From the sequence record PZ445524.1: DNA of 64,000 nucleotides, one strand, 5' to 3'. The notes below the pieces were generated by a model, which did not search any database, was not told the origin of the DNA, and saw only the letters and a program-made list of their open reading frames with translations. Source of the DNA: a phage. Both the position numbers and the translations under genes were made by a program. Within the stretch, counting starts at the first letter, position 1; every line of letters begins with the position of its first letter. Below are positions 38,492-39,658 of this stretch, one piece after another.

Positions 38492-38800
38492 CTATTTTAT
38501 TCCGCGTGATGCAATTGTGTTCTGTCGTTTAACACCAGTTTGTTTAAAGTCATGATTGTCGATTTGATCGGTACGAGCAACTCCGAATGATGATTTGATT
38601 TTAGCTTTAGATCCTTTAGTTATAGAAATAAACATCTCGGAAGCCCCTTTCTTAAAGTCCGAGGCGATTACTTCAACGCCGTTCTTAGCAAGTGACTTCA
38701 GAATTGCCTCTGCATACTCATCGTCAAGACTCGTCTGAGTATTAATAACGAATGTCTTTGGCGCAGCCGCTTCATTGATAAATTCTTTAAATGTTTTCAT
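38492..38800 (-). CDS. internal-protein-like protein with capsid targeting sequence
   Basis: 102 aa; N-terminus MKTFKEFINEA. Confidence 0.6.
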   Translation of the reverse strand: MKTFKEFINEAAAPKTFVINTQTSLDDEYAEAILKSLAKNGVEVIASDFKKGASEMFISITKGSKAKIKSSFGVARTDQIDNHDFKQTGVKRQNTIASRGIK

Positions 38801-38825
38801 TTTATTTTCCTAATTAATTTTGATA

Positions 38826-38860
38826 GGGTAATAGTATCACTACTAAAACCACATGTAAAC
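38826..38860 (-). promoter_or_regulatory. T4-type early promoter cassette (direct repeat copy 1)
   Basis: near-identical to the cassette at 39156-39190. Confidence 0.55.
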
Positions 38861-38872
38861 AACTTTGTGAAA

Positions 38873-39130
38873 TTATTTTAAATCTTCTAATCGTTTCTTC
38901 ATCTTAGAACCGTTCTTAGCGATTTCGCCTGCATCAGAGCATAATGCTAAAAGCGCTTTAACTTTAGTTTGGTCTCCTTTAAAAGATGAAGGATCCACAG
39001 CAGCAGCAAGTTCTTTAATACGAGAGAAAAGACGCTCAGCTTCAGCTAAAGCCATTCCAAGCTTTACTTCCATACCGTGGGAAGATTCAGTGATAGTAGT
39101 TTTTGTAGCAAACTCTTTGAAAGTTTTCAT
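38873..39130 (-). CDS. internal-protein-like protein with capsid-targeting-like N-terminus
   Basis: 85 aa; N-terminus MKTFKEFATK; flanked by about 100 bp direct repeats. Confidence 0.55.
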   Translation of the reverse strand: MKTFKEFATKTTITESSHGMEVKLGMALAEAERLFSRIKELAAAVDPSSFKGDQTKVKALLALCSDAGEIAKNGSKMKKRLEDLK

Positions 39131-39155
39131 TTTATTTTCCTAATTAATTTTGATG

Positions 39156-39190
39156 AGGTAATAGTATCACTACCTCATCAGTATGTAAAC
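39156..39190 (-). promoter_or_regulatory. T4-type early promoter cassette (direct repeat copy 2)
   Basis: minus GTTTAC ... GATACTATTACC. Confidence 0.55.
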
Positions 39191-39202
39191 AACTTTGTGA
39201 AA

Positions 39203-39658
39203 TTATTTTAAATCGTCTGCCCAATCGAGTTTAAGAGGCTCTTTGTATTCACGGTCAAGTACAACCGGAATTTGTACATCACCGCTAAATGATAAGGGCC
39301 CAACATTATAAGACAATGTTATATGCGGTGTGTAATCATCAAAATCATGTGTAGCACCTAGTGCCCGCGCATACATGTGTCGACAGCGCAGATATTCAGA
39401 ATCTAGCACAAGTACAAGAGTCGATCCATCTTGTGTTTTCCATACTTCTAAATGTCCAGAAGAAGCTACTTCAAAACTTCCACTCGATGGAACATATGGA
39501 ACATTTACTCTTGAATAACATATAGTCGAATGAATTTTTTCTCTAGGAACTGGATTAGGAACACGTAAAGAGCGCTGGAGTTCTTCCAGCGCATCAAGTG
39601 TTAATTCTGAAAACTTAGCTGCTACATAAAGACCCGTTGAAAAGTCTTTAAATTCCAT
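39203..39658 (-). CDS. 57B: gp57B, 2H phosphoesterase (Acb1 anti-CBASS cyclic-nucleotide nuclease)
   Basis: 151 aa; two HxT/S motifs (HSTI and HITL) typical of 2H phosphoesterases; position upstream of 57A. Confidence 0.75.

Follow-up and report, generated by a model that had tools for sequence, protein, structure and literature searches.

The two direct repeats that flank the gene ip5 in the phage sequence PZ445524.1 (64,000 nucleotides, analysed over its full length and referred to below as the window) are most probably two copies of an intergenic module within which small internal-protein genes are exchanged by homologous recombination. The window is a T-even (Tequatrovirus) genome, and the repeats sit in its hypervariable internal-protein (IP) locus, which runs from 57B to trna.4 in the order 57B-ip5-ip7-ip8-trna.4 with every gene on the minus strand, the same stretch that is annotated as the IP locus in T2, RB32, RB15 and T4. 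We assign a probability of roughly 0.88 to the proposal that the small ip genes of the T-even IP locus are cassettes exchanged by homologous recombination within shared intergenic modules, judging from sequence comparison. Each ip gene would form a cassette complete in itself, with the same kind of intergenic module ahead of it: the end of the gene upstream, a T4 early promoter (with a hairpin around its -10 element in many copies), a leader with a Shine-Dalgarno (SD) sequence, and the first seven codons of the downstream gene, which are predicted to encode the capsid-targeting sequence responsible for loading the protein into the prohead. The repeats would be the modules before ip5 and before ip7, and would bracket ip5 for that reason. 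The likeness of the modules would have two causes: all cassettes depend on the same early expression and targeting peptide, and the general homologous recombination of the phage would cross over inside the modules and homogenise them. A crossover between modules, whether these lie in the same genome or in co-infecting genomes with different cassette sets, would delete, insert or replace a whole cassette and would damage no gene. The phenomenon is already known for exactly this locus (from work of 1994, via citing papers, and from studies of promoter/stem-loop elements, PeSLs, in 2010 and 2014), and we claim no new principle; the sole new detail is the cassette order ip5-ip7-ip8.

The repeat copies were delimited by repeat detection, alignment and a promoter scan, with copy B (39110-39218, minus strand) forming the 57B/ip5 module and copy A (38780-38888, minus strand) the ip5/ip7 module. 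The two are 109 nt long, 88% identical and spaced 330 nt apart, and a blastn search of the whole window with copy A as query recovers copy B at E = 4e-28. The direct repeats of about 100 bp that a first-pass annotation had seen around a cassette at 38873-39130 are therefore real; it located them correctly, with coordinates about 6 nt off at each end, and what it took for a single a/g difference between the copies is a difference of two bases (gatagggt against gatgaggt). In-register alignment of the copies gives identical runs of 32, 17 and 32 nt, including ATCAAAATTAATTAGGAAAATAAAATGAAAAC (32 nt, 38793-38824 and 39123-39154, minus strand), and places most of the differences in the promoter spacer, within a variable island of ~9 nt, and in 2 nt just after the -10. 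At its 5' end each copy carries GATTTAAAATAA, the final three codons D-L-K and the stop of the upstream gene (..DLK*), followed by the AT-rich stretch TTTCACAAAG, the -35 element TTGTTTACA, a 17-nt spacer, the extended -10 GTGATACTAT, the leader AAAATTAATT and, at the 3' end, the SD and start codon AGGAAAATAAAATG. The coding part of the repeat follows the SD AGGAAA and reads ATG AAA ACN TTY AAA GAR TTT, which translates as MKTFKEF. Copy B accordingly spans the last codons and stop of 57B, an UP element, a promoter with the -35 TTTACA at 39189-39184, a 17-nt spacer and the extended -10 TG..TACTAT (TACTAT at 39166-39161), the leader, the SD AGGAAA and ip5 codons 1-7 (ATG at 39130), and copy A spans the last codons and stop of ip5, the -35 TTTACA at 38859-38854, the -10 TACTAT at 38836-38831, the leader and SD, and ip7 codons 1-7 (ATG at 38800). 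By consensus match, both copies contain an early promoter, TTTACA-17-TACTAT with TG before the -10 and AAAATAATTTCACAAAG upstream, which is presumably active, as is the targeting peptide encoded behind it. That the repeat covers promoter, leader and MKT start had been recognised in the first pass; its extension into the 3' end of the upstream gene (three codons and the stop) had gone unmentioned.

This extension means that ip5 and 57B share their final 12 nt, GATTTAAAATAA (38873-38884 and 39203-39214). The C-terminus of 57B is ..(D/E)LK* in every genus sampled, and the 3' end of ip5 looks like a captured piece of 57B. Because ip5 ends with the same DNA as 57B, the module 3' of ip5 carries a fragment of the 57B 3' end, which is to be expected if ip5 entered via a crossover in the 57B-proximal module or left two hybrid copies.

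Two further modules were delimited in the same locus by repeat, promoter and fold analysis. The ip7/ip8 module (38394-38491, minus strand) has TTTACT-17-TATTAT, a 12-bp hairpin at 38443-38470, a different leader and ip8 codons 1-7, and the ip8/trna.4 module (38129-38189, minus strand) has TTTACA-17-TATTAT, a hairpin that is only weak and a leader containing GAGGAG; both belong to the repeat family, with a 46-nt core at 74-89% identity. Minus-strand TTTAC(A/T)-17-TA(C/T)TAT sites with an upstream TG number exactly four in the promoter scan (39189, 38859, 38480 and 38185) and correspond to the four intergenic spaces of the IP locus. The -10/3'-arm core GTGATAYTATTAYCYNATC is found at four sites only in the 64 kb, again the four IP-locus modules. 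Related copies of the repeat had been listed at six places, and those at 38101-38190 and 38430-38490 hold up, with the 46-nt core and GTGATAYTATTAYCYNATC, while those at 8721-8760, 19030-19075, 20465-20520 and 34605-34650 are generic early promoters. We rejected these four as module copies since they have no -10/hairpin core and no capsid-targeting codons: the sites at 8735-8752, 20506-20523 and 34651-34668 have the UP/-35 part TTTCACAAAGTTGTTTAC alone in common with the modules (0-2 mismatches), and blastn returned no significant match to copy A at 19030-19075. They are ordinary T4-type early promoters before unrelated genes. At 8735-8752 (minus strand), an unrelated early promoter matches the IP modules perfectly over an 18-nt UP/-35 block (28 nt at 96%), enough homology to make it a potential ectopic recombination partner 30 kb off.

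The cassette content of the locus was compared across 44 loci holding both 57B and trna.4, plus the RB15 record. The distance from 57B to trna.4 ranges from 83 nt to ~1.7 kb, equivalent to zero to about five cassettes. Among close relatives, in which 57B is 99-100% identical, the window has ip5-ip7-ip8, T2 ip5-ip7, RB32 ip5-ip9-ip7, RB15 ip5-ip9-ip7-ip8, T4 ipI, T4_ev240 ip5-ipI-ip8, T6, PST and G2540-3 ip5-ip6, Shfl2 ip5 alone, G8 ip7 alone, ZCEC14 ip7-ip8, FL12 ip9-ip7 and G4498 ip9-ip7-ip8. Two metagenomic relatives (L009 and L010) have no cassette, with 57B and trna.4 83-84 nt apart, and the one module in these "empty sites" has hairpin arms, TAGGACT/AGTCCTA, unlike any of the others. The body of ip5 occurs in 252 phage records, as against 503 records with 57B at ≥95% identity, and ip5 is therefore a genuine presence/absence polymorphism. 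A search of 50,697 phage records did not find the order ip5-ip7-ip8 in any of them; its nearest counterparts are RB15 and VEc74, which have ip9 inserted, T2, which lacks ip8, and ZCEC14, which lacks ip5. We considered whether the repeats could date from an ancient tandem duplication of a single ip gene, after which the bodies diverged and the regulatory ends were kept, with no ongoing exchange. Such an origin, which would account for a tandem array of similar-sized genes with the common start MKT(F/Y)(K/Q)EF, is extremely improbable given that cassette order and content differ among phages 95-100% identical in 57B and trna.4, and that the bodies have no similarity past residue 7 whereas the modules hold 32-nt perfect runs, a contrast that needs homogenisation or recent exchange.

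Two genomes without ip5 allow the junction to be placed by mapping of BLAST segments. ZCEC14 corresponds to the window without ip5, and G8 likewise joins 57B straight to ip7; the open reading frame (ORF) missing from both is exactly 38873-39130. The BLAST segments that match ZCEC14 (from the 57B side to 39110, and from 38888 onward via ip7, ip8 and trna.4) overlap across the 109-nt repeat, and G8 shows the same junction against the window, its segments also overlapping on the repeat. The single module of G8 and ZCEC14 has copy-B markers on its left side (the spacer CTGATGAGGTAG, then CTCATC) and copy-A markers on its right side (the ip7 codons ACA TTT AAA GAA TTT ATC), which confines the junction to the 32-nt run 38793-38824 / 39123-39154. 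A direct 57B>ip7 junction is present in five distinct phages. Comparison of the T-even genomes for presence or absence of the 38873-39130 ORF, the check that had been proposed alongside the first-pass reading of cassette recombination, thus reveals differing cassette sets and, in G8 and ZCEC14, junctions inside the repeat, and it supports that reading. The difference in ip5 may reflect loss or gain, by intragenomic loop-out or by exchange between co-infecting phages, routes that comparison does not separate.

In-register junctions inside modules were seen for G8, ZCEC14, Shfl2, T2 and RB15, and homologous recombination is the process that would most readily have made them. The modules are mosaic, in that the UP/-35 block and 5' spacer track the upstream gene and the leader and targeting codons track the downstream gene. 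The switch point within the module differs between genomes, even for the same gene pair: in the ip5>ip7 module T2 switches in the -10 core and the window just after the 3' arm, which is CCCTATC in the window and CCTCATC in T2. The ipI gene of T4_ev240 opens with synonymous codons of ip5 type. Switch points fall in at least three module places (inside the -10 core, immediately behind the 3' arm, and among the SD/targeting codons), and multiple independent crossovers at varied positions, as these sequences suggest, are a prediction of general homologous recombination and not of a site-specific mechanism.

The same mosaic structure bears on a simpler explanation, in which the repeats are alike merely from a shared need for a strong early promoter, a ribosome-binding site and a targeting peptide, and the cassette differences arose via unrelated illegitimate events. 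Every conserved block does have an obvious function, and other T4 early promoters in the window carry the UP/-35 block outside any cassette. Shared function alone leaves unexplained, however, the identity at positions without known constraint (the leader AAAATTAATTAGG, the synonymous targeting codons and the three upstream codons), the left and right module parts that track different neighbours, and the exact in-register joining of ip5-less genomes within the repeat, and we regard this explanation as highly improbable.

Several points nevertheless weigh against exchange of cassettes by homologous recombination. The evidence is a comparison of finished genomes, with no recombination event observed. 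Functional constraint alone would hold the promoter, ribosome-binding site and targeting codons similar. The stem-loop expected of a PeSL appears in half of the repeat pair, the copy A hairpin not being significant (z -0.6). The longest perfect runs are just 32 nt, short for efficient T4 recombination, for which the reported threshold is ~50 bp. T4 rearrangements at microhomologies of 6-10 bp have been shown experimentally (PMC9391042).

The fold around the -10 was analysed in each module. In copy B a predicted hairpin of 13 bp with a 4-nt loop (39151-39180, minus strand; arms TGATGAGGTAGTG / TATTACCTCATCA) encloses the -10 with a free energy of -17.4 kcal/mol (z -3.4; 0/200 shuffles equally stable). 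The ip7/ip8 hairpin reaches -21.2 (z -4.4), and the ip8/trna.4 fold is no better than shuffles (z -0.5). Across modules and genera we found six complementary arm pairs, namely GATGAGGTA/TACCTCATC, GATAGGGTA/TACCCTATC, AGGTCTATAG/CTATAGACCT, GGGCTAT/ATAGCCC, GGGTTAT/ATAACCC and TAGGACT/AGTCCTA, and the hairpin is lost in modules whose two arms are of different type. A covariation test on 51 distinct modules was not significant in a single-register count (66.5% paired versus 65.6% in shuffles; score 0.116 versus 0.113, with 190/500 shuffles as high), the test being weak because registers vary by module type. In the predicted hairpins of the window and loci L001-L050, pairs other than Watson-Crick are almost all G.T when read on the sense strand (71 GT versus 4 TG), and folding is more favourable for the sense than for the antisense strand (mean -11.3 versus -8.9 kcal/mol). 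The GT bias and the sense stability hint at a role in the sense RNA or in one DNA strand, although the formal test gave no significant result. The stem-loop is thus thermodynamically supported in some copies only, and any function for it is a prediction.

If the hairpin enclosing the -10 were active, it might focus crossovers, which could proceed via stalled replication or via a cruciform offered to T4 endonuclease VII, or it might serve as an RNA element in read-through transcripts that insulates each cassette. The stable folds in many modules, the six arm pairs across genera, the GT bias and the greater sense stability speak for such activity, and the null covariation test and the dispersal of crossover points along the module speak against it; on balance we consider it unlikely. 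Were the hairpin active, chimeric modules with mismatched arms (copy A, ip9>ip7) would be recombination scars with altered expression. A rival explanation is targeted exchange, in which the -10 hairpin, as a DNA cruciform or hairpin or via a binding protein, directs breaks or template switches, or in which mini-circles move by a dedicated integron-like activity. Many modules and genera show stable hairpins whose complementary arm pairs differ, several chimeric modules change type between the arms (in the loop/-10 core), and PeSL mini-circles have been detected in phi1 and RB49 (PMC2839356). Targeting of this kind is very unlikely all the same, in that switch points lie in at least three module places, as general homologous recombination gives, the formal hairpin covariation test is not significant, and the locus has no integrase-like gene: the ORFs from the tRNA genes to gene 1 are all accounted for as trna.2-.4, the ip genes, 57B/Acb1 and 57A, with no recombinase- or integrase-like gene among them. 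A scan for intrinsic terminators found none at any of the four modules, there being no T-run after the hairpin, and we therefore claim no terminator function for them. Rfam gave no match at E up to 1 over 37800-39800.

The genes themselves were identified by family searches and by comparison of loci. The cassette between the repeats, ip5 (38873-39130, minus strand), encodes 85 aa and matches PHROG 3499, "internal head protein" (E 1.2e-49). ip7 (38492-38800, minus strand) encodes an internal head protein of 102 aa with the N-terminus MKTFKEFINE (PHROG 2667, E 5e-41). ip8 (38190-38414, minus strand) encodes an internal virion protein of 74 aa with the N-terminus MKTYQEFIAE (PHROG 8765), and its DNA is 97.6% identical to RB15 ip8 (Z35082). 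The three "internal head/virion protein" matches (PHROGs 3499, 2667 and 8765) span E 1e-49 to 2e-26, and Ip5, Ip7 and Ip8 are so named in the annotations of T2, RB32 and RB15. Ip5 has no Pfam family and no PDB relative (best E 0.76). Downstream, the locus is bordered by trna.4 (37943-38128, minus strand), a conserved small membrane ORF, and upstream by 57B (39203-39658, minus strand), of the Acb1 family (Pfam PF23474, E 2.6e-60). This match is to an anti-CBASS phosphodiesterase, yet the label "RNA ligase" persists for 57B in many RefSeq phage records.

The capsid-targeting sequence has the form MKT(Y/F)(Q/K)EF.. and is followed by an (L/I)-x-E prohead-protease site, the established cleavage motif of gp21. 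The N-termini of Ip5, Ip7 and Ip8 all fit MKT(Y/F)(Q/K)EF; that of Ip5, MKTFKEFATKTTITE, opens MKTFKEF and has I-T-E at residues 13-15, a candidate prohead-protease cleavage site. In pairwise comparison the Ip proteins are alike in their first 7 residues only, with unrelated bodies beyond, and DNA homology consequently ends where the shared capsid-targeting sequence ends. The coding motif for this sequence occurs at 5 sites only in the 64 kb: ip5, ip7, ip8 and two genes of a second IP locus (30113-31025, minus strand), directly downstream of the lysozyme gene e (31114-31608). The two ORFs of the second locus (192 aa and 105 aa, IpII- and IpIII-like) both start MKTYQEFIAE and have the targeting-sequence codons in common with the IP modules, but not the promoter/hairpin module. 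A role of the capsid-targeting sequence and anti-restriction roles of IpI-III are documented (PMC3012670, PMC12373910, PMC9391042), IpI, Ip2 and Ip3 each disarming a different GmrSD type IV restriction enzyme (PMC3012670, PMC9391042). Head packaging, injection and inhibition of host defence have been shown for IpI, Ip2 and Ip3 only (PMC3012670, PMC9391042), and by likeness to them Ip5 is probably an injected anti-defence protein.

Further observations concern the locus in relatives and its surroundings. The ip8 homologue of ZCEC14 (L049) looks frameshifted (MKTSKEFIVEAKRR...PILKNF), and an opposite-strand ORF is annotated there. In many non-Tequatrovirus loci of the comparison (within L006-L040, e.g. 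L006, L011, L022 and L029-L032) the 57B stop overlaps the first ip ATG (TTAAAATGAAAAC), with no promoter module between 57B and the first ip gene; a crossover at TAAAATRA, a short motif common to both module ends, could have produced the overlap. A tRNA cluster of eight genes (Arg, Met, Thr, Ser, Pro, Gly, Leu and Gln) occupies 35794-37144 on the minus strand, and its composition varies among relatives, with Ile in T4 in place of the Met of the window and Tyr in T6.

Conserved flanking sequences of T-even IP loci, and the idea that these flanks mediate shuffling, were reportedly described by Repoila, Tetart, Bouet and Krisch in 1994 (EMBO J 13:4181). The window agrees with the T-even IP loci of that work, and with RB15 (Z35082; ip5-ip9-ip7-ip8), in the extent of the locus from 57B to trna.4, in the genes ip5, ip7 and ip8 and in the conserved N-terminal leader, and differs only in its cassette combination, the order ip5-ip7-ip8. 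The RefSeq note for RB32 describes Ip7/Ip9 as "flanked by 43 bp direct repeat". Petrov 2010 makes no mention of the IP locus. Under the definition of Arbiol et al. 2010, PeSLs are promoter/stem-loop/SD cassettes of ~100 bp that recombine and border variable ORFs, and their promoter and terminator activity and excised mini-circles were shown in phi1 and RB49 (PMC2839356). PeSL-like sequences at two T-even IP loci are credited to Repoila et al. 1994 by Arbiol 2010 (PMC2839356) and Comeau 2014 (PMC4122927), both of which hold that promoter/stem-loop cassettes mediate modular shuffling. The IP-locus elements are considered analogues and not homologues of PeSLs, having T4-type early promoters and weaker AT-rich stems without polyG/polyC (PMC2839356), and the PST/T4 PeSL promoter consensus is TTTACW-N17-TAYWAT (Comeau 2014, PMC4122927).

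Set beside the PeSLs of RB49/phi1, PST/T4 and nt-1/KVP40, the modules of the window are likewise ~100-bp intergenic composites of an AT-rich region, an early promoter, in some of them a stem-loop over the -10, an SD and a start codon; they flank variable ORFs in hyperplastic regions, indel junctions lie inside the element, and the PST/T4 consensus fits all four. They differ in that the repeat reaches into the coding regions at either end (..DLK* upstream, MKTFKEF downstream) and in that the stem is followed by no T-run, which makes intrinsic termination doubtful. Integron cassettes offer a further parallel: small single-gene cassettes, unrelated to one another, stand in tandem at one fixed site and are gained, lost and reordered between relatives. 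In contrast to integrons, the IP locus has no integrase (tyrosine recombinase) or attC-type site, each cassette has its own promoter, and exchange seems to rely on general homology, its crossover points being variable.

The practical value of these results is modest: a clean map of crossover intervals, the absence of ip5 from roughly half of close relatives, and an unlisted cassette order. The function of Ip5, Ip7 and Ip8 is a more interesting question than the repeats. For the biology of these phages, the locus illustrates clearly how large lytic phages would keep a swappable set of injected anti-defence proteins, with shared promoter-plus-targeting modules that would allow whole genes to be exchanged without breaking anything.

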